Source: Octopus vulgaris
Taxonomy: Eukaryota
NCBI GenBank assembly: GCA_951406725.2
Contig: OX597815.1
Location: 149,482,001 to 149,546,000, forward strand
Reading direction: 5' to 3'
DNA: 64,000 nucleotides
How positions within the stretch are numbered: position 1 is the first letter of the stretch; each line of letters starts with the position of its first letter. Position numbers and translations under genes: made by a program. A model generated the notes under the pieces. It saw nothing but the letters and a program-made list of their open reading frames with translations. It did not search any database and had not been told where the DNA came from. Shown in pieces: positions 4,563-56,370 of this stretch.

Positions 4563-5002
4563 GGCCTGTTGGATCTAATCAACTAAAGCATTCGTCCTAT
4601 TTTTTCTGGACTGCCATGTTAGCTTCGCGATAACTATTAATAACCAGTACTGCTGCCGTAGTCGCCTTTAGAGAAATTTATAAATAATAATATTTCTATT
4701 TTTGAAAACTAGTGGTTGTATTCCACTGAATATATATTAATAAACTTTCGAACAGACAGGCAACAGCAACCCCTGCTGGGTTCGGTTACTCCACATGATA
4801 AGGAGTAAATACCCCGAAACTAGTCTGTGGATGTTGAACCAGCATGGGGAAGCTGGGGACCGCCCCTGTTTGAAGGTTGTAATGGAAACAGGTTTGTTCG
4901 TAACATAGCCTGCTTGAGGTGATGGCCTGTTGAAGCTACTCAACGACAGCAGTCGTCCTATTTTCCTGTAGTGCCTTGTTAGCTTGCGATAAATATTAAT
5001 AT
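4563..5002 (+). mobile_element. pLTR/retrozyme-like unit: ~80-bp direct repeats ~361 bp apart flanking a degenerate hammerhead
   Basis: ggcctgttgga..gataactattaata (4564-4642) is repeated at 4925-5001. Between them: tccaca-TGATAA-ggagt/acccc-GAAA-CTAG-TC-tgtgga with an extended stem I. Confidence 0.55.
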
Positions 5003-5938
5003 ATATATAACAAAGTTACTTAATTCCATACGAGTAGAAATATAGGAAGAATAGATGTTCGGAATGCACTGAGAATAGTTAAAATATATATATTAATAAA
5101 ATGTATAATAATATATTAAAAATTATTTTCACTATTGTCAGTGTATTTTGTACTTCTATTTTGATACACCCCCATATATATATATACATATATATGAGAG
5201 AGAGAGAGCGAGAGAGAGAGAGAGATTTGTTGGCACGAAATATGATATAAGTATTTAGCAGTCTTATTTAAATTTTTGATTTTGGTTTGTATTTACATAT
5301 TTTTACAATAGTTTGATTTTTGCTCATGTATATTTGCAATTTATTTTCCATATTTATCTTGTGATGACTAAACTTATATAACGAGCAAACAAATTAATTT
5401 CTAAACTTCTTTACATAATCGAATAAGCTAAACATAAATAACACAACAAGCCAACATAATATAATTAAGCTTCGTTAACCAGATAAGATTAAATACGTTA
5501 TATTTGTTTTAAATTTATTTACTATTGCTGATAGTCGTAGTAATTAAGAAGTTTTATTCGTAATATATTATCGGATTACTTTCTTCATAACGCAGCGATT
5601 ATGCTTATTTACTTTTTGTTCTTTTTCATCTCTTATATAACTTTCTTAAAAATCAAATATTTCACTTAAAATATATCATGCATTAATTGCTTTTGCTTGT
5701 TTGTGAAACTATCACGAGATTCAGTGGTCAAACGAATGTTATTGTGTAAATCAATGCTCTTTCTAAATCATACGAAATTATAAACACTAACAAAGACAGC
5801 TATCGCTGTAAATCAAATATTTCTTTTGTTAACATGTAAGATTTTAAATTAAATTAGTCCAATATACCTGTGTTTAGAATCGGGTTAATTTGTTTCGTTT
5901 TAGTTACTTATTTAAATCTGCATTCGATTGAATGGTTG

Positions 5939-6432
5939 TACGAGGTGGTATCAAAAAAAAATTTCCGGACTAGTTATGTTTAATAAAAAGTAACTTTTTA
6001 CCGCAGTTTTAACATCAACTCATTCGAAATAGCCGGTTTGTGCAGCAATACACCGATTCGAGCGTTCTTGCCAGTTTTGAAATCCGGCCTGGAAGATATT
6101 TTCTGTACACGAGTCGAGTATCTTCTACGGTTCCATCTGGATCACAAGAACGATTTTAAAACGACGACCTACGAGCTGAATTTTCATTTTGGGGAAGAGA
6201 TGGATGTCGGCAGCTGTTTAACCTGGTGAACACGGCGGGTGCGAAGAGGATACCATGCTGTTTTTGTGGAAAAGCTCACGAATGAGGATAACGCAATGAC
6301 AGAGTACATTGTCATCGGGAAGAATTCAATTCTTCTCGCTCTCCACAGATCCGGTAGCATCCACGGAATGGTCCTCACCCAAACATTTAAAACGTTATTG
6401 ATTATTGTCCAACGATCCTCGTGCACAAGCTG
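5939..6432 (-). mobile_element. Internally deleted mariner (DD34D) element
   Basis: TIR-like tacgaggtggtatcaaaa..tttccggact at 5939. Minus strand gives HPPCSPG*TAADIHLFPKMKIQLVGRRF...FQNWQERSNRCIAAQTGYFE (YSPDL region) and LVHEDR. Confidence 0.8.
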
Positions 6433-6906
6433 ATCCCCATGCATGTTCCTCATGCACCACTAAGCTTGGTAGTGATGGTGACGGCGGGGCGGGGGCGGTG
6501 GTGGTTGTGGTGGTGAAGCAGATAATGATGTTGATGGCAATCTTTATTCTACTTGAACTCCGTCAACCACTGCAGATATGTTCCCTTCCGATTTAATTTC
6601 CCGATGTCACGTTCTGAGCTGGATTTGAACTCAGAAAGGATTCGATTTTGAATAGTTCCTAGATTCGGAAATACTCTGCCCTAGATTAGTATATTGTTTT
6701 TTTCAGAAAGGTGATAGTCCAACTCGTCACAAAGACTAATGGCATAATGAGTCTAAAAAGATTGCAAATCATTTTTCACCAAAGTTTCAGGGTTAATCTG
6801 TCGTTAATTTTGTAAGTACCCACTCTGAATATAAATATTTTGTAAAGATCCACTCTGAATATAATTTTACCAATAATGTGGATATGAAATTTAAACATTC
6901 GAAATA

Positions 6907-7310
6907 GGCACAGGAGTGGCTATGTGGTAAGTAGCTTGCTTACCAACCAGGCGGTTCCAGGTTCAGTCCCACTGCGTGGCACATTCTTGGGCAAATGTCG
7001 ACTTCTACTATAGCCTCGGGCCAACCAAAACCTTGTGAGTGGATTTGGTAGAGCTAAACCGAACGAAGCTCACCGTATATATATATACATATATCATTTA
7101 TATGTCTATGTTTGTCCACTTCCCACCATCGTTTGACAACCGATGCTGGTGTTTTTACGCCCCCATAAAGTAGCGGTTTGGCAAAAGTGGTGATGGTGGT
7201 AAAATAAGTACTAGGCTTACAAAGAATAAGTCCTGGGGTCGATTTGGTTCAACTACAGACGGTGCTCCAGCATGGACGCAGTGAAATGAATGTAACAAAT
7301 AAAAGAGAAA
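6907..7310 (+). mobile_element. tRNA-derived SINE family A (octopus OK/OR-type), near full length
   Basis: A box TGGCTATGTGG, B box GGTTCAGTCCC, internal (TA)n tract. Body is repeated many times in the window. Confidence 0.9.
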
Positions 7311-8373
7311 ATGAGTAACATTTATGAGTAACATTTATGTGGCGAACTGGCGGAGCTATTAGGGCATCAGATAGAATATTTTTGCCCAGAGGGATAAAGT
7401 TTTCATTTCATAAATAAGACACCGGATATGTACTGGGATTGAGTGTTCTAGATCTTTCTTTCTCTTGCTCAGAATCGGCCACTTTGAGCGAGGAGACAGA
7501 TCCTCTGCATCACTCAGAATTTTCCTTTCTCGTGAAAAGAAGACCATTTGAACTAAAGGTAGGTTAGTAAATTCTTCTGACAGAAATAAACTCGTATGAT
7601 ATTGGAACCATCAAATATACGCTCCAATATGCAATAACTCGGGGAATGGAAACATAAAGAAAAAACAAATATTATCTAAAATACCCTTTATTCCTAAATT
7701 GTGCTTGTAAATCCAACCAATAACTTTAATAGGAAAAAAAAACTGTGAATAAGATTAAAAGATTCACAGAGTGTTTTATCCAAGCTATTCTGCAGACTCA
7801 TGCATATTAACTGATGCTCCGAATGTTTCGCCTTGAGAAATCTACAGCAGGTTATATAACTATTTCAAATTCAATCAAATATATTGATATGGAAACAATT
7901 GCTACCAGAGTCTGCAATGCGACAGTTCGGTTGTTGAAATATATGTTTCTTATAATAATTCTGCAATTATACATTCGGATTAAAATTCAAAATTATAATT
8001 AGCCGTATTCAAAGAGAAATATACAAATGGAAGTGCATACAAAAGTCAGATGACAATTAATTATATTTCATTGCTTCACCGCTTCTTCCTATCAGCTGAC
8101 ACAATATATACAAACTGGGGAACATGCCAGTAATTCTCGTGAAATTGTTTAAAACAAAATAATAATAAACATTGTTTCTAATTTTCGTACAAGGTCCTCA
8201 AATTTAGTAGAAGGGAATCAGTGGGCTCGGCCTGTCCGCCGACTTAAAAACAAGCAATAGTTACATTCGTTTCAGGTTTTGACGCAAGGCCAGCAATTTC
8301 GACGAGGGTGTAAGCCGATTAGATCAACCCCTGTGTTCAACTGATAGTCATTAATCTATACCGATATAAAGGT

Positions 8374-8878
8374 CTTCCAAATAAACAAGCGCTGTGCTAG
8401 ACACACAAAAAGGGATAAATTCATGAAAGGAATGAAAATTAAAATAGATTGTACTTCTATATGAATAATATATAGTCTAATGACTAATTTGTCTTTTGTG
8501 CTGGGTCACTGGTAATAATAATTTATTTTTTATTACCCTATTTACTATGTTTAAATATTGCTCGATAAATTTGCTCGTAAATTTTTTACCGGAATCCTCT
8601 CTGTCACCGGGTATGATTTGCGTCTGCGCACTGGTTTGAAAAGTTTAGGTATACAAATCGTTAGATTTGCATGTTCTTCTAACGGTCTGTACATCTAGGA
8701 TTACGAAGGCTCCCTACCGATGATTCTTGCCTTGGCAGATAAATTCTGTTTGTTTGCTAAAAATAGATGAAACCGTCGGTCTAGGATATAGCTGAAATGG
8801 TAAACGTTTTTAATTTTCATTCATTTCATGAATTTATCCCTTTTTGTGTGTCTAGCACAGCGCTTCTTTATTTGGAAG
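8374..8878. mobile_element. Foldback element with ~71-bp inverted arms (8374-8444 / 8808-8878) and an internal hammerhead; PLE-like inverted pLTR
   Basis: Arms are near-perfect reverse complements (cttccaaataaacaagcgctgtgctagacacacaaaaagggataaattcatgaaa). Followed by (TA)n. Confidence 0.85.
8713..8785 (+). ncRNA. Type I hammerhead ribozyme motif, CCGAUGA core variant
   Basis: ccta-CCGATGA-[long stem II ttggcagataaa/tttgtttgctaa]-GAAA-ccgtcgg-TC^tagg. Confidence 0.7.
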
Positions 8879-8916
8879 CCATTTATTGTATTTCTATATG
8901 AATAATATATTTATAT

Positions 8917-10540: not shown

Positions 10541-10671
10541 GTGAACGTAATCTGAAATATGTCAGCTCACTCTGGCATAGTCATTAACATAAGTCTCTCA
10601 GGTATCAACGTGGACCGCTTATCAGGAAACCAAAAAGGTCAGCATTGGCAAAGCATTACTAACGGTAACGA

Positions 10672-10745
<74 letters not shown>

Positions 10746-10766
10746 ATGTATATGTATATATAAACA

Positions 10767-10925
10767 AAGGGCTTCTTTCAGTTTCCGTCAACCAAATCGA
10801 CTCACAAGTCTTTGGTCGGCCTGAGGCTATAGCAGAAGACACGTGCATAATGTTCTACGCTGTGGGACTGAAAACGGAACCATATGGTTGGTAAGCAATC
10901 TTGTTTCCACACAACCACTCCTGCA

Positions 10926-10927
<2 letters not shown>
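10767..10927 (-). mobile_element. SINE family A, head portion
   Basis: Reverse complement of the 6907-7075 head. Confidence 0.85.
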
Positions 10928-10974
<47 letters not shown>

Positions 10975-13551: not shown

Positions 13552-13613
<62 letters not shown>

Positions 13614-13614
13614 G

Positions 13615-14157
13615 GAGTGAGGGAACAGTGCATGCCATCAAAGTGAAACTGGTGTAAAATATACGAAGCCCAGTATACCCATCATGACTACCAGTCTGAT
13701 AAGGGTACACTAGGCACATGCTTCGCAACCATTTGTGCGCGACATGGTGATCTCATATCAAGAGAAACAGCGCATGACCTTGCAGGTGGGGCCCTGTTAG
13801 AATTATCTTTTGGTCGAGTAACCCATTCCGCTCAAAAGGTCCCTGAATAAGGATTGTTTAAGGATGTAGAACGAAACACTCATGTTTCCAAAAGTGAATC
13901 ATTAAAATCCCAAAGAATCCCACTCAATGCATGGCTATGTTGCTCCCCCACTACTTCGGTTTGTGATCATCAGCCACTAAGAGACATGGTCAACTGGTTA
14001 AGATCAAACAACTGACAAGCAAATCTGTGATATTGAGCAGAATATTTGATCTAGCCCATCTTTTATACAAAGATAAAACAATGTACATGAGAGAACTTCC
14101 AATTAGTTAAGATCAGAAGCCACGAGAGCCACCGCCTGATACTGCATCAGGGCATTT
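13615..14157 (-). mobile_element. Element C (~560-bp (AAT)n-tailed non-autonomous retroposon)
   Basis: Reverse complement of 43011-43569, with a (TTA)n tract at 13553-13613 as its tail. Confidence 0.9.
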
Positions 14158-14636
14158 TTTAGACATATATCATCTCGAAAGAGTCCAGAAGCTGGCTATC
14201 CGCATGGTTCTTGGTCTCAAGCATTTGTCTTATGAAGAAAGGATGAAGACGCTCGACCTTTATTCTCTAGAAAAACGACGACGCCGTGGTGATCTCATTC
14301 TTGCTCACAACATTATAAGCGGAGAGTGTAACCTCTCGAAAGAGCTGTTCTTCACTCCTGCTCCAGAGCGTCGGCTGCGGAATCACTCCGAAAATCTCTA
14401 TCTGCGACGATTTCATCTCAATCAAAGGAGAGGGGCTTTCTCCGTCCGGGTTGCGGATCCTTGGAATAAGCTGCCGGACGAGATAGTGAAGATGCCAACG
14501 ACCGCTCGGTTCAAAGTCTCTCTTGACCAGAAATAGCCTGAACTCTTTGCATGATCACTCTGTACATAACTCCATGTCCCCCTACATAGTCTTGCTTTTT
14601 GCTTTTTGAACCAAAAAATTAACTTAACTTAACTTA
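14158..14636 (+). mobile_element. CR1-clade LINE 3' end (ORF2 C-terminus plus 3' UTR)
   Basis: LERVQKLAIRMVLGLKHLSYEERMKTLDLYSLEKRRRRGDLI...FSVRVADPWNKLP; (AACTT)n tail. Confidence 0.9.
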
Positions 14637-14730
14637 TTATTATTATTATTATTATTATTATGGCTGTTTTTGTCATTATTATTACCCTGTTGGTACTTCA
14701 ATTCATTGATCTCGTAAAGGTGAAGGACAA

Positions 14731-15085
14731 CTGCGTGGCACGTTGGGCAAGTGTATTCTATTATAGCCTCGCGTCGACTAAAGCCTTGAGAGGGGATTAG
14801 GCAGACGGAAACAGAAAGAAGCCCGTCGTATATATGTATATGTATATATATATATGTGTGTGCGTATGTGTGTGTGTGTGTGTGCCTGTGTTTGTTCCCT
14901 CAACGTTGCTTAGCAACCGATGCTGGTGTGTTTACGTCCCCGTTACCTAGCGGTTCGGCAAAAGGAACCGATAGAATAAGTACTAGGCTTACAAAGAATA
15001 AGTCCTGGGGCCGATTTGTTCGATTAAAGGCGGTGCCACAGCATGGCTACAGTCAAATTACTGAAACAAGTAAAAGAGTAAAAGA
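14731..15085 (+). mobile_element. SINE family A, 5'-truncated
   Basis: Matches the 6907-7310 body and tail. Confidence 0.9.
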
Positions 15086-16290
15086 GCACTATATGATAAC
15101 ATTTTTGTGTAGTTCGACAATCACTATCTCACTTCCCGTAACTTTCAGCCTTATATAGCAGTGTATGAGTTGCGTCGAGTACGCTAATTCAAGAGAAACG
15201 TGATGCTTTATACCATCAGCGTGGTAGTTGGTTAGGGTTTCAGTAGTATTTGTTTCAATCCGATTTTGTCCTTCATTTCACATTCACTAAAGATATTCCT
15301 ACAACTGCAGTAGAGGTTTAAAATAAGACATCACATCACTAAAATTATTGTCTATAAGCTGTTAATGAAGAATGGGTACCTACCCTTAAAATTTCATTAT
15401 ACGATTCCAACATTAGTCTCACACTAAACATCACACGCAATTTTGTAATTAATTTCTGCAGACTCTGACTTTTGACGCAGAATATATTGACTAAAATCTA
15501 ATGCTATATGAAATAGAACGTTGGCTTTTAGTCTTTATTCTAGAAATATTTTAGACTTTTTGCATTTATTTTTAAATATAAATAAAGAAGAAGAAACCGA
15601 AATTCTGTTATGAGGGGAAAAGTTCCATTGTGCCAAATATTAAATTGTGTCCTTGCTTATGGCAATATCCATTCCATGAAAATAGGTGGTTTCAGTCAAA
15701 TGTGAAAAAGTAATTTTCTTCCCCTTTTTCCTTTAATATAAATTGTGTTTCATTCAGCAAAAAAATGTTGTACAAGAACATATAAACATGGGTGAGTTTG
15801 TGCGTGCGGTGTGTGTGTGTGTGAGAGAGAGAGAGAGACAGAGAGAAAGAGAGAGACAGAGAGAGAGAGAGAGAGTGTGTGTGTGTGTGTGTGTGTGTGT
15901 GATTCATTCGAAGAGCAGTGTCAATCTCCTCTCTGGACGAGTAAAAATTATTCTAATCATTCTGATTTCTGATTTACAGCTTTGAAAGAAGTTTTGAATT
16001 ATTTAGCAATAGTGTGATGCATCTCGTGAGGAAGAACCGAAAATATTTTATTTGTTTGTCGGTTTCTATGATTATTATTATTATTATTACTATTATTATT
16101 ATTGAGTGGATGTATATAGACGCAAGAGTGGGTGTGTGGTAAGTAGCTTGCTTACCAACACATGATTCCGGGTTCAGTCTCACTGCCTGGCACCTTGGTC
16201 AAGTGTCTTCTACTATAGCGTCGGTCCGACCAAAGCCTTGTGAGTGGATTTGGTAGACGGAAACTAAAAGAAACCCGTCGTATATATATA

Positions 16291-16349
<59 letters not shown>

Positions 16350-16360
16350 ACATATATATA

Positions 16361-17142
16361 TATCAAACTAAAATTATTGAGCAAACAAATGCAAGGTCAT
16401 CCGCATATCATTTCATAATTCGAACATTTAATCATAGAATATACATATAAACATCCCGCAAGATAGAACATAATTCGTAAGCATATAATAATAATAAGAT
16501 GCGAGAAAAAAAATTTCTTCATCAAAGTTTAGAGTTAATAGGAAAGCAAACAACATTGTGCGGGCTTGGTAGGTGATGCTGTCTATCTTTATATTTATAT
16601 ATTTTTTTCCCCTGACGAAGGAGGTATTATCTGGATGTACCCTAGTGCTTTAAATATAATACACCCCTGAAATGGCCATAGGGATAAGTAAATATGGTTC
16701 CCTTCTTAACTATACGGCTTCTTTTACCTGAATAATTATTTAATAAGATTTCTAAACGATGAACTTTTATTTTATTTACATGATATATATTATATATTTT
16801 TTATATGCTCCTATATGTGTATATATATATATATATATATACATGTTTTATATATTTTTATATACCTATATATTTTTATATATTACTTATATTATATTTT
16901 TACTTTCTACGTCTTTTTAAAAAATGTATTTTTTCTGAATCGCTAAAATATTAACTCTAAACTTTGATGAAGAAAATTTTTTTGTCGCACCTAATTATTA
17001 TTATATGCTTGTCTGCTTATACAGATGAATTATGTTCCATCTTGCGGGATGTTTATATGTATATTCTATGATTAAATGTTCGAATTATGAAATGATATGC
17101 GGATGACCTTGCATTTGTTTGTTCAATAAGTTTAGTTTGATA
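16361..17142. mobile_element. Foldback element with ~180-bp inverted arms (16361-16540 / 16949-17142) and a central hammerhead
   Basis: Arms are reverse complements with one ~14-bp indel. Inserted in (TA)n. Confidence 0.9.
16608..16684 (+). ncRNA. Type I hammerhead ribozyme motif, canonical core, palindromic stem III (dimer type)
   Basis: tccc-CTGACGA-aggaggtattat..ataatacacccct-GAAA-TGGCCA-TA^ggga; predicted cleavage after 16680. Confidence 0.85.
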
Positions 17143-17442
17143 TTTTTGTCTCTTTCAATAGAGCACTTCTATAGCAGTCCTATTAATCATTTTGTTCCTG
17201 ACAAGAAACAATCACTGTATTATTGATATTGATATATATATATGTTTGTTTGTCCCCGCAACATCGCTTCTCAACCGATGCTGGTGTGTTTACGACCGCG
17301 TAAATTAGCGGTTCGGCAAAAGTGGCTGATAGAATAAGTCCTAGAGTCGATTTGCTCGACGAAAGGCTGTGCTCCAGCATGGCCGCAGTGAAATGATTGA
17401 AACAAGTAAAATATTAAAATAGTATTATTATTATTATTATTT

Positions 17443-18969: not shown

Positions 18970-19013
<44 letters not shown>

Positions 19014-19144
19014 ATTTTTAAATAAATATGGTGAAAAATTGAATATTAATTTTAATGTTATTAATTGAATAGAACTATATGCATGTTCAATCTTATGTGG
19101 ACGTCTTGTGTATAGTTCTGCAAATTATATTTTGCTATGACGGC

Positions 19145-19211
19145 CATACTGATGAATTGCAGACATTTAAGTATGTATTACTTAAGTGGTAACAATGAAA
19201 CCGGGTATGTG
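19145..19211 (+). ncRNA. Type I hammerhead ribozyme motif, canonical core, in a short element (~19010-19370) bounded by (TA)n
   Basis: cata-CTGATGA-attg..catttaagta/tacttaagtg..caat-GAAA-ccggg-TA^tgtg. Confidence 0.75.
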
Positions 19212-19367
19212 ATTAATCTTTATATTTTGTTTCTTTTCATTTGTCTTGCTCGCTTACGTTCTGGCGTTTGTTGAATTTTCTTGAGAACAATCTTTTCTTA
19301 GTGGTCAGACCATATGGGATCCACATCTAGCATACTGGATGTCCACTTAGTGTTCATCCCTCATAAT

Positions 19368-19440
<73 letters not shown>

Positions 19441-22667: not shown

Positions 22668-23066
22668 TCTCTTTTACTCTTTTACTTGTTTCAGTCATTT
22701 GACTATAGCCATGCTGGAGCACTGACTTTAGTCGAGGAAATCGACCCCAGGGTTTATTCTTTAAGCGTAGTACTTATTCTATCGGTCTCTTTTGTCGAAT
22801 CGCCGAATTACGCGGACGTAAACACACCAGCATCGATTGTCAAGCGATGTTGGTGGAGCAACAAACAGACACACAAACACATACTTATACATATGCATAT
22901 ATACGACGGGCTTCTTTCAGTTTCCGTCTGCCAAATCCCCTCGCAAGGCCTTGGTCGGCCGGAGGCTATAGTAGAAGACACTTGCCCAAGGTGCCATGAA
23001 GTGGGACTGAACCCGGAACCATGTTGCTGGGAAGCAAGCTTCTTACCACGTAGCCACTCCTGCGCC
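22668..23066 (-). mobile_element. SINE family A, full length
   Basis: Reverse complement of 6907-7310 including the GGCGCAGGAGTGGCT head. Confidence 0.92.
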
Positions 23067-23202
23067 TGCAAATAATAAATTTGCTTTCGCTATCTCTTTC
23101 AGTATCAAAACATTTATCCTAGGGATATCAACACTAGCAATGTGCGTGGAAGACACAATAGGAACAACGGCAACAATCATTACCAAGAACAGCGCTTCTT
23201 AC

Positions 23203-25776: not shown

Positions 25777-25778
<2 letters not shown>

Positions 25779-25850
25779 CATATTAAATACAATGAGACAA
25801 GAAAACCAAGGTTGTGTGGAGTTTTAAGGACCTCTATAAGGAGAATTTTA

Positions 25851-25898
25851 ATCCTACAGCTGTTACTGGGATATTAGGGATATCCCTTCATCAGAGAC
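25851..25898 (-). ncRNA. Hammerhead motif with GAAA->GUAA mutation
   Basis: gtct-CTGATGA-a-gggatat/atatccc-a-GTAA-CAGCTG-TA^ggat. Confidence 0.65.
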
Positions 25899-26240: not shown

Positions 26241-26288
26241 GTCTCTGATGAAGGGGTATCGTGAATATCCCAGAAACAGGTATAAGAC
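26241..26288 (+). ncRNA. Minimal type I hammerhead motif
   Basis: gtct-CTGATGA-a-ggggtat/atatccc-a-GAAA-caggta-TA^agac. Confidence 0.75.
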
Positions 26289-28570: not shown

Positions 28571-28652
<82 letters not shown>

Positions 28653-30102: not shown

Positions 30103-30108
<6 letters not shown>

Positions 30109-30832
30109 TGTTTGGAGATGATGTACAGGTATTTTATATTAGAAGAAATGAGGTACTCAGAAATTCGGATGGTTTTATATTTACAGATATTTTTTTGTAT
30201 ATTACATGTTTTTATACATCATATATCATATATCATATATGAGCGCTTTCGCCCATTCTAGTGGGGTTTTCCAAATTGAACTAAATTCTTGTGGAAAAAT
30301 TTGACCATTTTATAGTGTTATTGAGTGTGTAGTGGTGGGGGGATATAAGATAGTACAAGAAGGTGATGAATTGGGAGAAAGTGAGAGAGAGAGAGCATGT
30401 GTGTGCGTGTGCGTATGTATGCGTGTGTGTGTTTTTGTATCTGAAAGAAGCGTTAAAGAAAAAGAAGGAGAGGAAGAAAAGGGAGAGAAAGAAAAAAAAT
30501 GTTTTACAAGGTTCTTTTGTAGATGGTCAGGATGTTTACTCCAATGAGGCTCTAAGATCTTGGGGAAAACATTTGAACATTTATTGAGTGTGTAGTGGTG
30601 GGGAGGGATATAAGATAGTACAAGAGGGTGATGAATGGGGAGAAAGTGAGAGAGATCATGTGTGTGTACGTGTGTGTATATATGTGTGTGTGTGTGTATC
30701 TGAAGGAAGTGTTATAGAAAAAGAAGGAAAGGAAGAAAAGGGAGAGAAAGAAGACCATAAACTGTTTGTAAGACTTTCCCTTTATAAATGTTCTGAAATC
30801 TTTCACAGCCTTGGATTTTTTATCTCATTCTG

Positions 30833-30835
<3 letters not shown>
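30103..30835. mobile_element. (TA)n-bounded element with a ~270-bp tandem duplication and hammerhead remnants
   Basis: 30288-30500 ~ 30559-30752. Minus strand GAAA-GCGC-TC with stem II ccca/tggg at 30240-30275. 3' end resembles the 26277-26345 pLTR tail. Confidence 0.6.
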
Positions 30836-33032: not shown

Positions 33033-33100
<68 letters not shown>

Positions 33101-34897: not shown

Positions 34898-35330
<433 letters not shown>

Positions 35331-35345
35331 AATAATAATAATAAT

Positions 35346-35595
35346 AAAGGGTAAAGACCCCCTTCGGTCATGAATGACCATGGGATTGCACCTAGAAATT
35401 TACCCTCCTAGACACAAGTCCGGGCAAGGTTGTTTATGGAAGGCCAGCAGTCGCCCATGCATACCAGCCTCCCCTCCACGCCACCAGTGTTATCCAAGGG
35501 AAAGACAAAGGTCGATACAGCTTGGCACCAGTGACGTCGCAACTCATTTCTACAGCTGAGTGAACTGGAGTAACGTGAAATAAAGTGCCTTGCTC
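35346..35595 (-). mobile_element. CORE-like SINE family D, head missing
   Basis: Minus strand gagcaaggcactttatttcacgttactccagttcactcagctgtagaaatgag is CORE-like; tail gggggtctttacccttt. Confidence 0.7.
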
Positions 35596-35596
35596 G

Positions 35597-36154
35597 AAAT
35601 GCCCTGATGCAGTACCAGGCAGTGGCTCTCATGGCTTCTGATCTTAACTGATTGGAAGTGTTATCATGTACATTGTTTTGTCTTGGTATAAAAGATGGGC
35701 TACAGCAAATATTCTGCTCAATACCACAGATTTGCTTGTCAGTTGTTTGACCGTAACCAGTTGAGCATGTCCCTTGGTGGCTGACGATATGTGCATCTCT
35801 GATCACGAGCAGAAGTAGTGGGGGAGCATCATAGCCATGTGTTGAGAGGGATTCTTTGGGGTTTGAATAATTCACCTCTGGAAACATGGGTGGTTCTTTC
35901 AACATCCTAAAACAACCCTTATTCAGGGACCTTTTGAGCGGGATGGGCTACTCAACCTGAAGAAAATTCTAACTGGGCCCCACCTGCAAGGTCATGTGCT
36001 GTTTATCTTGATATGAGATCACCATGTCGCGCACATATAGTTGTGATGCATGTGCCTTGTGTACCCTTATCAGACGGGTAGTCATGATGGGTATATTGGG
36101 CTTCGTATATTTTACCCCAGTGTCACTTTGATGGCATGCACTACTCTCTCACTC
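35597..36154 (+). mobile_element. Element C, full length
   Basis: aaatgccctgatgcagtacc...ctctctcactc(AAT)n. Confidence 0.92.
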
Positions 36155-36557
36155 AATAATAATAATAAGTGGGTGTAAACACATAAACAAAATAAGAATA
36201 AACAAAAACAAAAACAAATTACACGAACGTATATAAACAGAAGATACTAATATTACAGGCATTACTCCCACACACACACCAACTAAACATAGACGCACAT
36301 AGAGATATACGCATGCGCAAATGAAGACACATACAATAGAAATACAAAATGGCTGACGGTTAGTAAGGAGAGACACACAAATAAGAAAGAAGAAAGACCA
36401 CTGATGCGTTCACAGGAGTGTGAGGAAAGAACTCTGGCCGAAATAAGATTAAGATTATTGTAATAAATAAATAAAACTGAAGCAAAGTAACACCAAATAT
36501 ATAGTGCGTGTGTTTTTATTGGCTAAACTGGCAAAATGACCATTCTGAAATACAACA

Positions 36558-39785: not shown

Positions 39786-40181
39786 ATCATTTCTATTATA
39801 GGCACAAGGCCTGAAATTTGAGGTAGGGGCATAGTCGATTACATCAACCCCAGTACGGAACTGGTATTTATTTTATAGACCCCAGAAAGGAATGAAAGGT
39901 AAAGTCGACCTCTGCTGAATGGGAATTCAGAACGTAAAATTAAATGAAATACATATTTATATATATTTTATTCTTTTATTTGTTTCAGTCATTTGACTGC
40001 AGCCATGATGGAGCGGGGCCTTTAGTCGAACAAATCGACCCCAGGACTTATTCTTTGTAAGCATGGTGCTTATCCTATCGGGCTCTATTCTGAACCGCTA
40101 AGTTATGGGGACGTAAACACACAAGCATCTGTTGTCAAGCGATAATGTGGGGACAGAGATAGGCATTTATATATATATATA

Positions 40182-40819
40182 CTAGCAGTATCGCCTGGCG
40201 TTGCTCGGGTTTGTAAGGGAAATAACTATATAAGCATTTTTAGAGAGTTATAGCCAAAAAATAGCAAAAAATGCATTAAAAATGGAAAAATTATGATGGT
40301 AAATTTTTTTTTAAATCGTTGACTCATCGTAGACATTTTTAGAGAGTTACTTTCTTTATATAATAGCGAAAAAATGCATTAAAATGGAAAAAAAAACGAT
40401 GGTAATTTATTTTTTAAATCGTAGACTCATGTAGACGCTTTCTTAGCCATTTCTGTGTTGGTGTCTTCAAGCCATGAAATCGTTGTTCTAAAAGAACACT
40501 GGTCTCCTTGACAACGCATTACGACGTTGATTTCCTTACACTCCCTTCCCCACAGGTGCAGGTGTGAGCGTGGACGCCAACTCCGCCGCCATCGACACAC
40601 GAAAAATTATGCATTAAAATGGAATAAAAAATGATGTTAAATTATTTTTTAAATCGTAGACTCATCGTAGACGCGCGCTAATATTCAGACGGGCTCGATA
40701 TGAATCACGACTATAAGCTACCCGAATTTGGTTAAACTGTACCGCAAAATGTGGGAGTAGTTAGGAATCTAAATCGAAGGGGACAGACACTCACACAACT
40801 ACAGTTTTATATATATAGA
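40182..40819 (-). mobile_element. Complete non-autonomous Helitron
   Basis: Minus strand: 5' A|TCTATATATATAAAA ... hairpin cccgagcaacgccagg ~8 nt before CTAG|T. Three internal copies of aaaatgcattaaaaatgg..aaatcgtagactcatcgtagac. Confidence 0.85.
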
Positions 40820-40829: not shown

Positions 40830-41195
40830 GCAGTAGTGGTGAGATATGACAGCAAAGAAAAGCATACATTCACTCTCTGCATGCAATTAGACTCGGAAAG
40901 TTCGTGAGGGACCCATTGACTCAATTTGCTGACTTTTCCGATAGCACACAGGTGTCAATGAATGGTTGAATGACCAAATCCAAGCTTCTCTGCTAGTTCC
41001 TCAACAGTTACGATGATATTTTGTTCCACCAGGGTTTTCAGGATGTCCTTGTCGAGTTCTACAGATCTTTCAGGATGAGGCTCGTCTTCTAGGCTGTAGT
41101 TTATGGCTCGGGATTTCTGGAACCACCATTGACACTGCCTTACGCTTATTGTCCAATCCCCATATACTGCATTAATATTTCTTGTACTTTGCACA
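40830..41195 (-). mobile_element. mariner transposase N-terminal fragment
   Basis: RNINAVYGDWTISVRQCQWWFQK..SLEDEP..TVEELAEKLG..STIH*HL..GKVSKLSQWVPHEL. Confidence 0.9.
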
Positions 41196-41254
41196 CATTT
41201 ATATTCTGTTTTTCTTTTATATGTTTCAGCCTTGAGGTTGTGGCCATGCTGGAT

Positions 41255-41301
<47 letters not shown>

Positions 41302-41759
41302 CTATCTGTCTGTCTGTCTGTATGTATATATGTATATGTATGTGTGTGAACAATAATATTTTCAACAGATGTGTTGCAAATGTATCTGATTGTTCTCAAG
41401 CTTCAATACTGTGTGTGTGTGTATGTGTGTGTGTATGTATGTGTGTGTGTATGTGTGTGTGTGTATGTATGTATGTATGTATGTATGTATGTATGTATGT
41501 ATGAGTGTATGTTTACTTTATTACTAATTACTCTCTTCCAAGAACATTTTCACTCACTCTTAGCTCTTAGCTTCCCATACATTTTACTCATGTATCTATC
41601 AGCGTCATAGACAGAATACTTTCACTTTAGTCTTCCTCAAATCACTCTGTCGCTATTTACTTTCATTTTATTCGTTGCCCACTGTGTGTGTGCGTTTGCG
41701 TGTGGTGTAAACCAGACTAAGAAAAGCATTTGACACACACACCAGAATGTCAGTTTTCT

Positions 41760-41922: not shown

Positions 41923-41927
<5 letters not shown>
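41760..41927 (-). mobile_element. Probable Helitron 5' end fragment
   Basis: Minus strand A|TCTTATTATAAAAGGCAGATTTTATCTGCC next to (TA)n; no 3' CTAG end found. Confidence 0.45.
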
Positions 41928-41982
<55 letters not shown>

Positions 41983-42252
41983 GACGGGCTTGTTTGAGTT
42001 TATGTATATATATATATATATATATACCACGGGCTTCTTTCAATTTCTCTCTACCATATCCAGTCACAATATTTTGGTTAGTCCGAGGTTATAGTAGAAG
42101 ACACTTGTCCAAGGTGCTCTGCAGTAGAATCTAAACCGGAACCACGTGATTGGTAAGCAAGCTTCTTACCACACAGCTGCTCCTACGCCTGTATATGGGT
42201 AGATAGAAGCACACACACACGTATATATATTTGTAGGTATGTATGTATATAT

Positions 42253-42976: not shown

Positions 42977-43010
<34 letters not shown>
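42784..43010. repeat. Compound (TTC)n-(TAC)n-(AAT)n microsatellite
   Basis: Direct reading. Confidence 0.95.
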
Positions 43011-43014
<4 letters not shown>

Positions 43015-43569
43015 GCCCTGATGCAGTACCAGGCAGTGGCTCTCATGGCTTCTGATCTTAACTGATTGGAAGTGTTATCATGTACATTGTTTTGTCTTGG
43101 TATAAAAGATGGGCTACAGCAAATATTCTGCTCAATACCACAGATTTGCTTGGTCAGTTGTTTGACTTTAACCAGTTGAGCATGTCCCTTAGTGGCTGAC
43201 GATATGTGCATCTCTGATCACGAGCAGAAGTAGTGGGGGAGCATCATAGCCATGTGTTGAGAGGGATTCTTTGGGGTTTGAATAATTCACCTCTGGAAAC
43301 ATGGGTGGTTTTTTCAACATCCTTAAACAACCCTTATTCAGGGACCTTTTGTGCGGGATGGGCTACTCAACCTGAAGAAAATTCTAACTGGGCCCCACCT
43401 GCAAGGTCATGTGCTGTTTATCTTGATATGAGATCACCATGTCGCGCACATGTGGTTGTGATGCATGTGCCTGGTATACCTTTATCAGACGGGTAGTCAT
43501 GATGGGTATATTGGGCTTCGTATATTTTACCCCAGTGTCACTTTGATGGCATGCACTGCTCTCTCACTC
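43011..43569 (+). mobile_element. Element C, full length, within (AAT)n on both sides
   Basis: Reference copy used for comparison. Confidence 0.92.
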
Positions 43570-43748
43570 AATAATAATAATAATAATAATGTTTTACAGG
43601 ATTGAGGTAACTCCTCCAATAGGTATACAGAAGCGAAAAACAATTAGGAGAATGCCATTGTTATTAAATGCATCTGTATACCTACAGGAAGGGTTACTTC
43701 AATATAATAATGATAATAATAATAATAATTATTATTATTATTATTATG

Positions 43749-44829: not shown

Positions 44830-45825
44830 TTTTCATTAATCACTTGATATAATTTGAAATGTTATCAGACACCTGTATCAGTTCAAGTCTTTATAAAATC
44901 CAGAAATGGAGACCATGCCATACACTTTCTTATAATCGATCTATACCCAAGTTAGTAGGTTATTCTTGCAGTTGTTCAGGACCATTCTGTCTGTCAGTAG
45001 TTGCTGTTTTGACCCTCGGCTTTTCCTTTTGCATTCCTTCCTGTTCCACTGGCAGTTTGTCATTACTTTCCCGCAAACACATAATTAGATATTATTCCTG
45101 TCAACAACTTCTACATGAGAGGTGGACAGGTGATAGGCTGGTAATTATCCACTGCATTGCATTTGTTGCTATCATTTTAGCAAAGAATTGTTTTACCTGT
45201 AGTTAGCCAGTTTGGGATTTGAACCTCGTTGTTGATCATTTTATCCATTTGCGTGACTATTCTTCTGTGTAGTGCTGGGAAATCTTTCAGCCAATATCCT
45301 CATACCACATCCGGACCAGAGCAATTCCAGTTTGGGATCTTGTTTTCTGTTCAGCTACAATTTCAGTCGTTGTTCTTATATTACTCAGTTTTACTTCATA
45401 TTTTTCCGACCATAACTCATTCAACAATCTTGCATCTTTGTTATGCTTTCTTCCATTATCCCAGATGTCACTCCTAAACCTCTTACTTTCTCAGTGCTGT
45501 TAACCTTTCCATTCAGCTGTTGATAAACCTTTTTCTGATATTGTTGGAGCAATGTGTTGATTTTATATTCTTCAATTCTTCGACTATGTCTCTTGATCTT
45601 TGTCGCTTTAGCCTGAAATCTGTGTTTCAGCTCTTCAAGAACTATATTTAGCCCCATTTTCCTTATCCTATATCTACGACCTGGTTCCTGACATTTCTCC
45701 TCACCTCTTGGCTTCACCTTTTTCTTTCTTGACAAAATGTTGATGTTTTCGTAGTTCTTTCATTGATTGCTTTATTCTTCTTTTCCACCATAGTTCTTTT
45801 CCTTCATTCACATGAATCATTGGAG
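44830..45825 (-). mobile_element. Decayed Dong/R4-clade LINE, N-terminal/RT region
   Basis: YRIRKMGLNIVLEELKHRFQAKATKIKRH..YQQLNG; PNWNCSGPDVV*GYWLK; NYQPITCPPLM*KLLTG. Confidence 0.85.
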
Positions 45826-48559: not shown

Positions 48560-48755
48560 TATAAATACAGCTTGTTCGCTAAATACACAAGTTTTTTTTA
48601 TTCTCTCTCAGTATATTTTCTCTCATTCTTTTCTGTTGAATAGCGTAGGATCGAAACGTAAAAGGTTTCTCACTGTTCCGCGTGTCAATCTAATATTCCT
48701 GATTGTTCTTCATACACCAGTCTTCATCTTTTGTTTTCCTGCAAATTTCAGCTAT
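48560..48755 (+). mobile_element. Short (TA)n-bounded element with a hammerhead-like variant (CUGUUGA)
   Basis: tttt-CTGTTGA-a-tagc gtag gatc-GAAA-CG-TA-aaag at 48629-48664; homologous to 56215-56370(-). Confidence 0.6.
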
Positions 48756-48839: not shown

Positions 48840-49000
48840 AATAATGGTGTCAATAAGACCCGAAGGTGTCAGGTAAGTATTGCTTAATCATTTTTGCACA
48901 CCGTCTCCGTTGCAGGGATATATAAAATATCCTGGAAACAGCTGTAAAACATATCTATAAATTTTCTAAAATCTTTCACGGCCTTGGAATTTGTTTAAAT
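48840..49000 (+). mobile_element. Solo pLTR fragment with a degenerate hammerhead
   Basis: gtct-CCGTTGC-agggatat/atatcct-g-GAAA-CAGCTG-TA-aaac at 48903-48950. Confidence 0.6.
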
Positions 49001-51822: not shown

Positions 51823-52020
51823 GAGATAATGGTGTCATTGAAACCCAAAGGTGTCAGGTAATGCTGAATAAGTGCTAGAGACAGATCATAGTTACTTTCT
51901 AGATTCGGTCTTTTTGCGAATAAAGGGTTCAATGCCAGAGTGTGTATATAAGAATTTTTCTGCGTAATAAGATAAAAAAAACTATGGGTGTGTACATATT
52001 AGAGCATTTATAGATAAAAG

Positions 52021-52072
52021 GTCTTACAGGTGTTTCTAGGATATTTATTAATTATATCCCTTCATCGGAGAC
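52021..52072 (-). ncRNA. Hammerhead motif in the inverted pLTR (CCGAUGA)
   Basis: gtct-CCGATGA-a-gggatat..atatcct-a-GAAA-cacctg-TA^agac. Confidence 0.75.
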
Positions 52073-53187
52073 GGTATGAGAGGATGATTAAGTCATAGTT
52101 AGTTTAGATGCGATACAAAATAGAGAGTGAGGTGGAGGAAAGAAAATAGATGCAAGGTATTTATGGATATTGAAGTTGTAAATCCATTTTCTTAGGCATA
52201 CCAGTATATAAGCAATATTCCAATATCCTATGAGTAAAGTCCAAAATTCTAAACTTATCAACATCCCAATACTCCCCTTACCACAAACCTAAACAAATCC
52301 TTAAATAACTTAAAATCCACTCCAATCACCACAAATCCACTTTCAATAGCATAATCAAGAGCATCTCAACCTGCACATCCGACCTCTCTTCCACTGAAGA
52401 AATCTTCAGTAATCACGCACCATATAATAATCACGCATTCGCTGCTAGAGGCTTCTCCCAACAAGTAGAATGCATCCATAACAACAGACTCAAATAACGC
52501 ATATCTCAAATCACATCTCAAACACGCGATAACCATCACAATCGCAACCAACCACACACATTTGTCGATGAAACCATGGAAGGCATTGCACCCAGGCAAT
52601 TCAGACCTCACCCACATTCATTTAACACTAGGTCAAAAACGAAAACAAATAAAACAACTAACAATAACAGGCCTCGCTTACCACACGTCTTACCTAGTAA
52701 TATAGATACCACTCATTTATCTAGCAACTTAGATAGCTCTATTCCCAGGCCCCCTAAAAAAAGTGGCGGTCGCTCTATTTTATGGTACACACCACCATTC
52801 TCACTTAACGATAAGAACGTAGCTAAGTCCTTCTTTAGAATACTAGACTCTAACTTCCCTCGACAACATAAATATCATTCTATCTTTAATCGATCCACCC
52901 TGAAACTATCTTATTCTAACTCACCTTCGAATCTATTATAGCAGCCTCGAATAAGCAAAAGATATCTCTTTGCTATCAAAACTAACATAGCTACAACTCT
53001 AGTAATACAAATAATCAACACACACACAGATCCAGTACAGATACCCTTACACTAAAACAGAACCACAAACAAACCCATTCAACTAACACTGCTCGGAACA
53101 ACACCTACAACTTTAACGCCCCTACAACTAGCAGAATTAATAGTAACAATAGTAGTACTGGTGGTGATAATAATGATAACGTTAGTA

Positions 53188-53228
<41 letters not shown>

Positions 53229-53254
53229 GATGATGGTGGTGGTGGTGGTGGTGG

Positions 53255-53291
<37 letters not shown>

Positions 53292-53830
53292 AAATGCCCT
53301 CATGCAGTACCAGGCAGTGGCTCACGTGGCTTCTGATCTTAACTGATTGGAAGTGTTATCATGTGCATTGTTTTGTCTTGGTAGAAAAGATGGACTACAG
53401 CAAATATTCTGCTCTGCTCAATACTACAGATTTACTTGTCAGTTGTTTGACCGTAACCAGTTGACCATGTACCTTAGTGACTGACGATATGTGCATCTCT
53501 AATCACGAGCAGAAGTAGTGGGGGAGCATCATAGCCGTGTGTTGAAAGGAATTCTTAGAGGTTTGGATAACTCACCTTTGGAAACATAGGTGGTTCTTTC
53601 AACATCGTTAAACAATCCATATTCAGGGATCGTTTGAGAAAATTCTAAATGGGCCCTACCTTCAAGGTCATGCGCTGTTTATCGTGATATGAGATCACTA
53701 TGTCGCGCACATATGGTTATTATGCATGTGCCTGGTGTACTCTTATCAGACGAGTAGTCGTGATGGGTATACTGGGCTTCCTATATTTTACCCCAGTATC
53801 ACTTTGATGGCATGCACTGCTCTCTCAATC
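53292..53830 (+). mobile_element. Element C, older copy inserted inside the PLE ORF
   Basis: Same 5' and 3' ends, more substitutions and a small deletion. Confidence 0.9.
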
Positions 53831-53851
53831 AATGATAATAATAATAATAAT

Positions 53852-54397
53852 ATAGAAATTTTCACCCCCTTCTATAACCTCTCCTCTGACGATACTTCCT
53901 TCTCTATTACCGAACTCGCTCCCCAAAATTCACCTAATTGTAACTGCCATCCTGAAACCACCTGCCCGTTACAAAACCATGGCAGAAGATATGATGTAAT
54001 TTACAAATGCACGGTCCTTAATCTATTACACATCTCTACAGCCATATACATAGGATCAACAAAAAATTTTAAGCAACGCTATGCCACTCATCTCCATTCT
54101 TTTAGATACGATAAACATAGTAAATCTACAACACTCGCCAACCACATACATCATCTCAAAAATGCAAATATACCCTCTACTCTATCATGGTCCATAATGG
54201 ACTCAGGACCTCCCTACCGAGGTCAACACTCAACCTGCAAGTTTTGCCTGAAGGAGGCACTCCACATATTAAAGCACAACTTTCCAACACTGCTAAATAA
54301 ATATAACGAGGCACTAAGCACATGCAACCATCGCTTTTATCACACGTTGGATTCTACCACAAATCCAAATGCCAGAATGTACAGTACATTTTCATAA
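53852..54397 (+). pseudogene. GIY-YIG endonuclease domain of the PLE (stop-free segment)
   Basis: NCNCHPETTCPLQ..DVIYKCTV..IYIGSTKNFKQRYATHLHSFR..STTLANHI..CKFCLKEALHI..LLNKYNEALSTCNH. Confidence 0.85.
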
Positions 54398-55488
54398 TAC
54401 TCCTTAGGTAATCCCAATAACCTTATAAATCTACACTCTAACACCTAATTCCTATCTAGTCCGACACATGTACCATCTGATTGTTTCGTATGTATGTGCA
54501 TACACCCATTATGCATGGATATGTATGAATGAGTGTATGCGTGTATATATGTATGTGGGTATGTGTAAATATACGTATGCAAGGTAGGTATATTCACCTA
54601 CGTATACAGAGGCGATGATACATGCAGATGAACGTAAAAATGACCCTGATGAGTACATATGCATGCGAGTAAAGATTGTATGTGTAACTTGTCTGATATA
54701 TACATGTATATACATCTTCACATATATTTTCTTATATTACTAAGCACTGAACTGTTAAACATATAAATCCCTTAATTCTTCATACTACTAACCCCATCTC
54801 TCTGCCCCTACACTTAGACTCTACTACTACACATTTTTCAGTCCTTTAACTCTTACCCCCTCCCCATATTCCTTCTATCCTCTTACACTATAATACCTTT
54901 CTCTCTATTTTACCCATCATCCCGCACTCCTACTTTCAAATTATCTCCACTGACCACTGACTGATCTATATCTTCATTTTTCTTTTTTCTTTATTCCTTT
55001 TATCCCTCTCTTCAGGATTTTTTTAATTATTTTGTTATCATTTTATTAATTTTATTCTTACTTTCTTCTCCTTCTTCTCTCTCTTTCTTTCTCTTCTCTT
55101 TTTTCTATTCTCATTTTTTCTCCTTCTTCATTTTTCTCTTCCTGTTTTCGATTTGACCTTATCAGTACACTCCCTATTTTTAGGTTACTTTAAATAAAAA
55201 ACTTTTTGACTATGCAACACTATATAAATTCTCTACTTGGAATGACCAAGTTTAAAAATCTGCTGGATCTCACTCATAATGTAATCTTACATTCCGTATA
55301 AACTCTATATTTGGAAGGACACATTTTAAACTCTGTTGGACTTTTGGACTTTACTCATAGGATATTAAAACATTGCATATATACCAGTATGCCTAAAAAT
55401 GGATTTACAACTTCAATATCCATACATATCTTGCATCTATTTTCTTTCCTCCACCTCACTAACTATGACTTAACCATTCTCTCACACC

Positions 55489-55540
55489 GTCTCCGATGAA
55501 GGGATATAATTAATAAATATCCTAGAAACAGCTTTAAGAC
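55489..55540 (+). ncRNA. Hammerhead motif in the 3' pLTR (CCGAUGA)
   Basis: gtct-CCGATGA-a-gggatat..atatcct-a-GAAA-cagctt-TA^agac. Confidence 0.75.
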
Positions 55541-55624
55541 CTGTCTATCGATAAATGTTCTAATATCGACACACTCTTGGTTTTTTAACTTATTACGCAA
55601 AAAATTCTGACATACATATACATA

Positions 55625-56203
55625 CACAGACATGGAGGAAGTAAATAGACACCTTTAATTTTCAAACTCTTTTATTTTATATTAATTGGTTGAAGGAGTG
55701 GTTTTCTTTTAGCTGCTCGTCCATAATACCTACGCTTATGCAGATATGAAACGCACGTTCTTGGACTAACATCTAGCTGTTTTGCAATGTCAGACGCCTT
55801 GGAACGGGATTTTGTTTTCCACAATTCTCTTCAAACTGTGAAGCTTCTGTTCCGAGGGCCCAAGTCGATCAGGACGAGCATCTGTTGATTCTTTTCGTTG
55901 GTGTTTTAATTGCGCTATCATTCTATTAACAGTAGCAAGAGGAATTTGACGATTTTCGGCAATTTTTCACTGGCTAAGACCAGCCTTAGATTACACGACA
56001 GTACGTCCTCTTTGAAAATCTGATACTCTGCTGAATTGTTTGTGCGTGGCATGATTACTCTTCGCAAATGTTTAATATAATAGCACCCTGGAATGAAAAA
56101 GAATAATTATATTGTAAATTCAACACCGCTGAAAACATATTAAGTTGCTTAGGTAAGAAATTTTGAAAATTAAAGATGTCTATTTACTTCCTGCACGTCT
56201 GTG
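55625..56203 (-). mobile_element. Internally deleted Tc1-like element with ~42-bp TIRs and TA TSD
   Basis: TA|cacagacatggaggaagtaaatagacacctttaattttcaaa ... tttgaaaattaaagatgtctatttacttcctgcacgtctgtg|TA. Minus strand MPRT..SDFQRGR..GLSQ*KIA..ATVNR. Confidence 0.88.
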
Positions 56204-56214
56204 TATATATATAG

Positions 56215-56370
56215 GGTGGGGGGAAATTCACAAAAAAATTACGAAGACAGGTGGTATAGACAACAACCAGTATAACGCTCAGTAAATGAAAAAGTCTTTA
56301 ACGTTTCGAGCCTACGCTCTTCCACAGAAAGAAACAAGGAGAAAAAATATATATGTGAGTAGCTAGCGGT
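56215..56370 (-). mobile_element. Short (TA)n-bounded element with a hammerhead-like variant (CUGUGGA)
   Basis: Minus strand cttt-CTGTGGA-a-gagc gtag gctc-GAAA-cgt-TA-aag at 56296-56331. Confidence 0.6.

Follow-up and report, generated by a model that had tools for sequence, protein, structure and literature searches.

The stretch of the Octopus vulgaris genome considered here (the window: 64 kb of contig OX597815.1, positions 149,482,001 to 149,546,000 of the forward strand in assembly GCA_951406725.2) carries 13 hammerhead-like motifs. These very probably mark the 3' ends of retroelements that bear a hammerhead: four or more coding families of Penelope-like elements (PLEs), and three families that are non-coding and resemble retrozymes. 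Their insertion at (TA)n tracts was likely the work of the reverse transcriptase (RT) and endonuclease (EN) of PLEs acting on uncleaved RNA, and most copies have decayed since. The assembly spans 2.80 Gb in 227 contigs, about 30 of them chromosome-sized. An original prediction, made from the window's letters, had described a dense constellation of hammerhead-bearing mini-retroelements beside their autonomous, Hydra-type partner; the motifs and their diversity stand up to analysis, and the exceptional density and the partner do not.

It is clear that the motifs are present. Where at least 12 motifs or remnants had been claimed, a hammerhead-like motif is found at all 13 places noted. Our structure descriptor, which requires a hammerhead core with stems I and II and a short stem III, returns six hits in the window, where 100 dinucleotide shuffles of it, the control that had been proposed, average 0.04 and never exceed 1; five of the six lie among the 13 places, and the sixth, at 29979 on the minus strand, is chance-like. 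Profiles built from genomic copies match exactly the 13 places in the window, nothing else there, and nothing in 664 kb of reversed sequence, although the inclusion of window copies in the profiles means that these matches establish to which family a motif belongs and are not independent evidence. All stems and a canonical core survive at just two places, 16612 and 19149; three motifs pass the descriptor with a variant core (C4 at 8717 and 52068, U6 at 56327), and the remaining eight are broken. Single-strand folding does not yield the hammerhead fold for most copies, as is expected of motifs of the dimer type, and an Rfam scan of the window gave no hammerhead among the 150 of 169 matches listed, which are low-complexity and miRNA-like only.

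The motifs fall into seven families (A with the related A2, six motifs; B, two; C, D, E, F and G, one each), in keeping with the six or more unrelated families expected, and all seven are dispersed repeats with 3' ends fixed at (TA)n and staggered 5' ends. Each was sampled by a genome search per motif type, the best 30 of the 40-70 matches listed being taken for inspection of their loci. Ten of the 13 motifs are 5'-truncated or inverted ends, or pseudo-long terminal repeats (pLTRs), of coding PLE families, two assigned to the Hydra clade (A, E), one to the Neptune clade (B) and one with another GIY-YIG nuclease (G), the clades being assigned from motifs and by-eye comparison with a published alignment (Hydra-1_Obim and Neptune1_Ap by eye only). 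Three lie in non-coding, circularly permuted, retrozyme-like units of 361 (C), 440 (D) and 535 nt (F), and it is to these three alone that the term mini-retroelement can be applied. The association with (TA)n is borne out, a run of (TA)4 or longer lying within 400 nt downstream of 12 of the 13 motifs as against 33% of random positions. The loopless, palindromic stem III that had been described holds for the consensuses of A (CAGCTG), E (TGGCCA), C (CTAG), G (GCGC) and B (CG), and fails for D and F, where stem III has a 1-nt loop. The core is canonical in D, E and F, of the U3-A8 type in C and G, U6 in B and C4 in many copies of A. Unrelated families retain stems I and II despite differing sequences, which at the family level supports their description as minimal type-I hammerheads of the PLE kind, with stem I weak in G. 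Inverted copies on the 5' side occur in every family (loci per 30: A 7, B 3, C 12, D 17, E 4, F 17, G 3).

The window is an ordinary sample, and the richness belongs to the genome. Sixty regularly spaced 10-kb stretches from 29 contigs (600 kb in total) hold 31 descriptor hits in 15 stretches, against 0-2 in ten shuffles, and comprise 20 canonical, six U3-A8, three C4 and two U6 cores; seven of the 31 come from one tandem array, and two are a single palindromic site counted on both strands. This rate predicts 3.3 hits per 64 kb, so that six or more would be met with a probability of 0.12 and the supposed constellation is not unusually dense. Extrapolation gives roughly 1.4 x 10^5 hammerheads genome-wide (about 50 per Mb), a rough figure that depends on the descriptor. 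The sample also holds at least ten further unrelated hammerhead families (L312, L315, L323, L328, L335, L350, L356, L364), among them another U3-A8 family and several opposite-strand pairs.

Family A is the pLTR of a PLE assigned to the Hydra clade. Its hammerhead lies on the same strand, 0.18-1.43 kb downstream of a Hydra EN, in 17 of 30 EN loci, including that of the window (53918-54349), whose EN shows the features that define the clade: a CxCX5C linker, CxxC and CxH motifs around the E/N residues, and no CCHH; the Pfam GIY-YIG match of this EN (E=0.005) is below the cut-off. The 3' hammerhead and the (TA)n target are likewise present in families A and E. The element to which this EN belongs was the presumed autonomous partner, and an intact frame for RT and EN was not found in it: the copy is dead, as it begins after the RT catalytic core, contains stops and is interrupted by a repeat of about 590 bp. 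Two of the 13 motifs are the ends of this dead copy itself, and all three A2 hammerheads, between 25777 and 26725, are damaged in the GAAA or in stem III. A 19-letter pattern for A has 2,763 exact genomic matches, the first 100 of which include many with C4 and many with U4; within a sampled subfamily C4 is present in 27 of 30 copies, and CpG decay to CCAAUGA is seen in seven. The inserted repeat is one of a family, found in the filtered self-BLAST from which the interspersed repeats of the window were taken, that lies beside trinucleotide runs (13593-14157, 35200-35347, 35597-36168, 43007-43590, 53260-53851; 79-98% identical).

Family B is the pLTR of an intact, young, 4.47-kb PLE that is assigned to the Neptune clade and, by eye, is closely similar to Neptune1_Ap. 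An EN remnant upstream of one B copy led to many near-identical young copies, and of 30 Neptune-type EN loci 23 have the motif downstream, a linkage that rules out B as a stand-alone short interspersed element (SINE), although most copies are pieces of about 180 nt with a preferred 5' start. Five loci carry long open reading frames (ORFs; 1024-1211 codons from stop to stop, 96.9-99.2% identical), and in three of them (L400, L402, L404) pLTR-ORF-pLTR tandems recur about 4.47 kb apart. The single ORF joins an RT (PF00078, RVT_1 E=1.4e-7) to a C-terminal GIY-YIG domain (E=0.0065), has 1,194 homologues, and shows the PADKGG form of the DKG motif, a CX4CxxC linker of the CX2-5CxxC type and the CCHH by which the Neptune clade is defined. 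Mobilisation by Hydra-type elements, as originally proposed, is thus only part of the picture: a Hydra-clade PLE is involved in A and E, and B, the most abundant family, belongs to an intact Neptune-clade element.

The core of family B is CUGUNGA, with U6 in place of A6, and reads CUGUUGA in all five long-ORF loci. A 27-letter pattern has 16,332 exact matches, 180 of them (1.1%) with A6, and reversed controls have none. With all seven core positions left free there are 16,446 matches, and among the first 100 (a hand count from a single contig, restricted to copies that match the remainder of the pattern) C3 is present in 99, U4 in 97, G5 in 97, U6 in 96, G8 in 97 and A9 in 100, with position 7 divided among U (44), A (25), C (20) and G (11); position 17 holds A or U. 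Compared between the consensuses of five subfamilies (72 copies, from which 20 loci picked for A6 were excluded), the 38-nt motif is 92-97% identical, as against 61-88% for the 5' flank and 67-93% for the 3' flank, with differences confined to positions 7 and 17 and the outermost base of stem I. The hammerhead motif is, by this comparison of copies, under constraint in the transposing lineages. The best predicted fold of the U6 sequence is a rod, with U4-G5-U6-U7 paired to the GAAACG side (-10.7 vs -8.3 kcal/mol for the hammerhead fold), and the best fold of a natural A6 copy is the hammerhead. No RNA run was listed as containing the B copy. A sister short family outside the window, B2 (L407-L418), has copies of about 200 nt between (TA)n runs, several with a common 5' start; its 30-letter pattern has 10,826 exact matches, mostly C4, no Neptune match was found for it in 12 loci, and it forms a rod with C4 or U4 alike.

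Family E is read as the 3' end of a second Hydra family, an RT C-terminus and EN lying collinear upstream in one of 30 loci (L090). A C-terminal GIY-YIG EN with a CX4CxxC linker lies upstream of G in five of 30 loci; stem I of this family is weak even in the consensus, and the three stems are thus not all in place, for which reason its motif is doubtful as a working ribozyme. A gag-like ORF upstream of 11 of 30 E copies was considered as a coding retrozyme and rejected, being an ORF1-only unit of an L1/Tx1-type long interspersed element (LINE): the E hammerhead follows this unit in only four of 30 loci, and its tandem arrays lack a hammerhead per unit. The unit stands within the 3' untranslated region (UTR) of E in those 11 loci (L241-L245, L063, L067-L072, L080-L087), on several contigs and flanked by a direct repeat of about 14 nt, an arrangement due to a target site common to both or to a composite that the PLE spread afterwards. 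It also forms head-to-tail arrays of about 9-12 near-identical 1.73-1.77-kb units encoding an ORF1-like protein only, with a CCHC knuckle and many open frames (L276-L289; for example G000:C2:138772982-138793012, C17:67745032-67759585 and C14:37736499-37753514), two of which (L276, L279) continue into a LINE with an APE endonuclease ORF2 (PF03372). These arrays resemble half-L1 elements stacked at the 5' end of an L1/Tx1 element. There were 13,111 first-look candidates for the unit; a homologue search with its protein, covering longer proteins only and so weak evidence, found none, and an Rfam scan of an array unit gave no hammerhead match.

No match to any of three PLE proteins was found within 1.5 kb upstream of C, D or F in 30 loci each. 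Copies longer than one monomer make up 25 of 30 in C and seven of 30 in F, the monomer lengths of D and F each coming from a single locus; each family has two preferred 3' ends, and all copies mapped run on across the cleavage site. The core of C is UUGANAA, with U3 in 29 and A8 in 30 of 30 copies and position 7 free, and the C4 of D is private to the window copy, U4 being present in 29 of 30. The covariation that had been put forward as a check is found in family C (34 sequences), where 91% of cells are paired and compensatory changes occur in seven of 13 pairs and in all three stems, with a score of 0.250 vs 0.155 in shuffles (0/500) and at most 0.11 when the alignment is slid. The palindrome of stem III also shows compensatory changes. 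A young retrozyme-like array elsewhere (L310:2100-4765) has seven identical canonical hammerheads at a period of 353-359 nt, flanked by (TA)n, with two units inverted and the inversion junction about 9 nt upstream of a cleavage site; contigs from four presumed RNA runs cover parts of its unit, ends, strand and circles not being readable from contigs.

These observations may be assembled into a mechanism. By analogy with PLE biology, and in particular with the Poseidon element PAc of Anolis carolinensis, the GIY-YIG nuclease would nick (TA)n and so prime reverse transcription, which would start internally, 70-280 nt downstream of the ribozyme and further in family E. The enzyme would then copy through the uncut site and usually stop early or switch template, and so leave solo, inverted and partially tandem pLTRs, while C, D and F would borrow the PLE machinery in trans from tandem or circular RNA. 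Families with a canonical core are predicted to cleave slowly, as dimers or with help from PLE protein, and so to trim tandem or read-through transcripts; in the U6 and C4 families cleavage would be attenuated. In the literature, truncated PLEs leave solo and opposite-strand minimal hammerheads (PMC4209133), and PLE insertion in vitro is unaffected by catalytic mutations, the template being unprocessed RNA (PMC11167929).

Several results weigh against this account. Self-cleavage of these motifs is a prediction from sequence, and the clade labels come from motifs and comparison by eye. The coding partner of E is known from one locus only, RT was not seen for G in the loci examined, and the non-coding status of C, D and F extends to 1.5 kb and three PLE proteins. 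Copies of C, D and F have 5' ends within 5 nt of the cleavage site in one, two and none of 30 loci respectively, where 0.6-0.9 are expected, so that nothing shows that cleaved RNA ever served as template; because loci were selected for covering the query, the positions open to such ends are restricted. No compensatory subfamily was found in stem II of B, only 22 scattered double mutants, and two pair-counting measures of covariation in C are weaker (21/500 and 15/500). Related copies can beat shuffles without any structure, and more weight therefore falls on the slid control and the palindrome swaps.

One alternative, unlikely although by no means negligible, is that nuclease activity has been lost, in the U6 and C4 families at any rate, and the motifs are kept as a structure for protein binding or template selection; U6 and C4 would then be changes selected to switch the ribozyme "off" by closing its core into a rod. 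The near fixation of U6 in B, its presence in every long-ORF locus, and the rod fold of U6 beside the hammerhead fold of a natural A6 copy all point this way, as do reports that changes of A6 and U4C reduce activity (PMC3088659) and that cleavage is dispensable for insertion in vitro (PMC11167929). Yet a free position 7, A or U at position 17 and 96-100% fixation elsewhere are the tolerances of a catalytic core, low but real activity persists in natural ribozymes with A6C or U4C (PMC3088659), and B2 also forms a rod with U4, from which it follows that the rod is not specific to variant cores. Related to this is a proposal that we regard as speculative and rather improbable: of some 10^5 hammerheads, those in the top active PLE lineages would have fixed U6 (Neptune) or C4 (two other large families), shutting the ribozyme in a rod until the protein of the element itself or a dimer partner opens it, a selected switch between trimmed RNA and insertion template.

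It is very improbable that all the motifs are separate non-autonomous mini-elements that owe their mobility to an autonomous Hydra-type PLE copy in the window. The Hydra motifs of the window EN, the lack of coding capacity in C, D and F, and the many B copies of about 180 nt with a preferred start agree with such a scheme, but the window copy has no RT core and has stops and an insertion, A and E are themselves Hydra 3' ends, and B and G are the ends of non-Hydra coding families. There is next to no chance that the motifs are fortuitous matches in AT-rich, microsatellite-rich DNA; the hit at 29979 is of that kind, and G is almost without stem I, but the shuffles yield 0.04 hits per window, the seven families are dispersed repeats and the reversed-pattern controls give 0 against 16,332. 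This reading is refuted, except possibly for family G.

Table 1. Features of the window (positions are those of the 64-kb stretch).
Feature	Position	Strand	Remarks
Family C, 1.3 monomers of the 361-nt unit	4527..5003	+	hammerhead 4790-4830; U3 lost in this copy
Inverted 3' piece on 5' side of D	8366-8444	opposite to unit	part of 8366..8911
Family D, permuted unit of about 440 nt	8449-8911	+	within 8366..8911; hammerhead 8713-8785
Family E, 5'-truncated 3' end of putative second Hydra-clade PLE	16360..17143	+	intact canonical hammerhead 16608-16684
Inverted 3' piece of family E	16360-16540	opposite to unit	part of 16360..17143
Family F, truncated permuted unit of about 535 nt between two (TA)n runs	19011..19370	+	intact canonical hammerhead 19145-19210
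Family A2 (related to Hydra A), inverted arm	25777-25968	-	core 25894; hammerhead broken
Family A2, plus arms	26167-26360, 26520-26725	+	cores 26245, 26612; both hammerheads broken
Family G, 3' end of PLE family	30105..30760	-	motif 30235-30280; family core UUGAAAA
Family A-type 3' piece	30760..30835	+	starts near cleavage site, ends in (TA)n
Family B, solo pLTR between (TA)n runs	48570..48752	+	hammerhead 48628-48665; U6 core, stem II mutated
Family A, pLTR remnant	48875..49000	+	core broken (48907)
Inverted Hydra-A pLTR copy at 5' end of truncated element	51943..52245	-	hammerhead 52068, C4 core
Dead 5'-truncated Hydra-clade PLE	52246..55605	+	RT C-terminal remnant with stops, EN, 3' UTR, pLTR
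RT C-terminal remnant with stops	52246-53250	+	within Hydra-clade fragment
Unrelated interspersed repeat of about 590 bp	53260..53851		inserted in Hydra fragment; self-BLAST
GIY-YIG EN (CxCx5C, CxxC, CxH)	53918-54349	+	within Hydra-clade fragment
pLTR hammerhead of Hydra fragment	55493	+	C4 core, stem III broken
Family B, solo pLTR	56213..56372	-	hammerhead 56293-56332; CUGUGGA core, otherwise intact

Other repeats share the window with these elements. One short repeat family, very abundant and probably a SINE, consists of two parts around a central microsatellite and recurs at 6904-7350, 10668-10936, 14730-15109, 16110-16363, 22669-23068, 28334-28623, 32862-33262, 39941-40182 and 41924-42196. 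A Mariner-type transposase fragment lies at 40958-41395 on the minus strand (HTH_48, E=7.5e-7), and short LINE-like protein remnants, recognised by eye and with no clear Pfam match, lie at 14111-14536, 45421-45759 and 61818-62108.

In PLEs the hammerhead is conserved, yet it cleaves weakly and proved dispensable for insertion in a single in vitro system. An intact, young Neptune family with more than 16,000 U6 copies, beside canonical, C4 and U3-A8 families, offers a natural comparison, as cores of several kinds side by side allow cleavage rate to be compared with transposition success, and a core change fixed in such a family would test whether PLE RNAs need to cleave themselves. The estimated load of about 50 per Mb would equal the 126,247 motifs of the axolotl in a ten-fold smaller genome, and PLE ends may account for some of the short repeats left unclassified in octopus annotations.

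The kind of element is already known, cephalopods included, and the suggestion that such a system was uncatalogued in this group does not hold: hammerhead-bearing Hydra PLEs are listed for Octopus bimaculoides, among them Hydra-1_Obim with its preference for (TA)n (Craig et al. 2021, PMC8557442, Files S1/S2), and 235 Rfam hammerheads are reported in the giant squid (PMC6962438). The O. vulgaris repeat paper ranks Penelope-like elements as an active order, and the words hammerhead and ribozyme do not occur in its accessible portion (PMC13282606). The supplements searched on PLE minimal hammerheads (PMC4209133) yielded no cephalopod term, and cephalopods are not covered in the accessible portions of retrozyme papers on the mussel (PMC7229834) and on vertebrates, where retrozymes are argued to be pLTR derivatives (bioRxiv 10.64898/2026.07.22.740005). 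The fixed U6 core in an intact element, the families and their scale appear undescribed; no report of a U6 hammerhead family was found in the literature searched, in which subscription journals are thinly covered and a prior mention is possible.

Parallels with the minimal PLE hammerheads described in 2014 (PMC4209133) include the consensus CUGANGAH-G...C-GAAA-palindrome-UH with an extra base after A9 and a short stem I, the predominance of solo motifs, opposite-strand pairs 100-700 bp apart and U3-A8 variant families; the octopus hammerheads differ in that U6 (B) and C4 (A, B2) are fixed in large families here and were not found in the accessible portion of that work, and in an estimated load of about 10^5 as against thousands. 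Families A and E share with Hydra-clade PLEs, Hydra-1_Obim included, the C-terminal GIY-YIG without CCHH, the CxCX5C, CxxC and CxH motifs, the 3' hammerhead and (TA)n (PMC8557442), although their hammerhead and EN sequences clearly differ by eye from those of Hydra-1_Obim, many A copies have C4, and the window copy is dead. Family B resembles Neptune1_Ap (Fig. S7, PMC8557442) in its single RT and GIY-YIG ORF, PADKGG, CX4CxxC, CCHH and pLTR-ORF-pLTR tandems, an assignment made from motifs and by eye, and departs from it in the U6 core and a long pyrimidine-rich 3' region. Families C, D and F and the L310 array recall metazoan non-LTR retrozymes (PMC7229834; bioRxiv 10.64898/2026.07.22.740005), in having no coding capacity, a unit length of a few hundred bases, a single type-I hammerhead in each monomer, partial tandems and a pLTR-related design; where retrozymes form long arrays, most copies of C, D and F stand dispersed as 1-1.6-mers, the three families have inversions of the PLE type and a pair of 3' ends, F at 535 nt exceeds the 150-450 bp range, and their circular RNA is putative. 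With PAc (Frangieh et al. 2024, PMC11167929), for which there are in vitro data, a protein-assisted ribozyme and a C3-G8 core where the octopus families are known from their sequences, the families share AT-rich targets and an apparently uncleaved template, and the two 3' ends of C, D and F resemble the "tail" that marks its two internal RT start sites.

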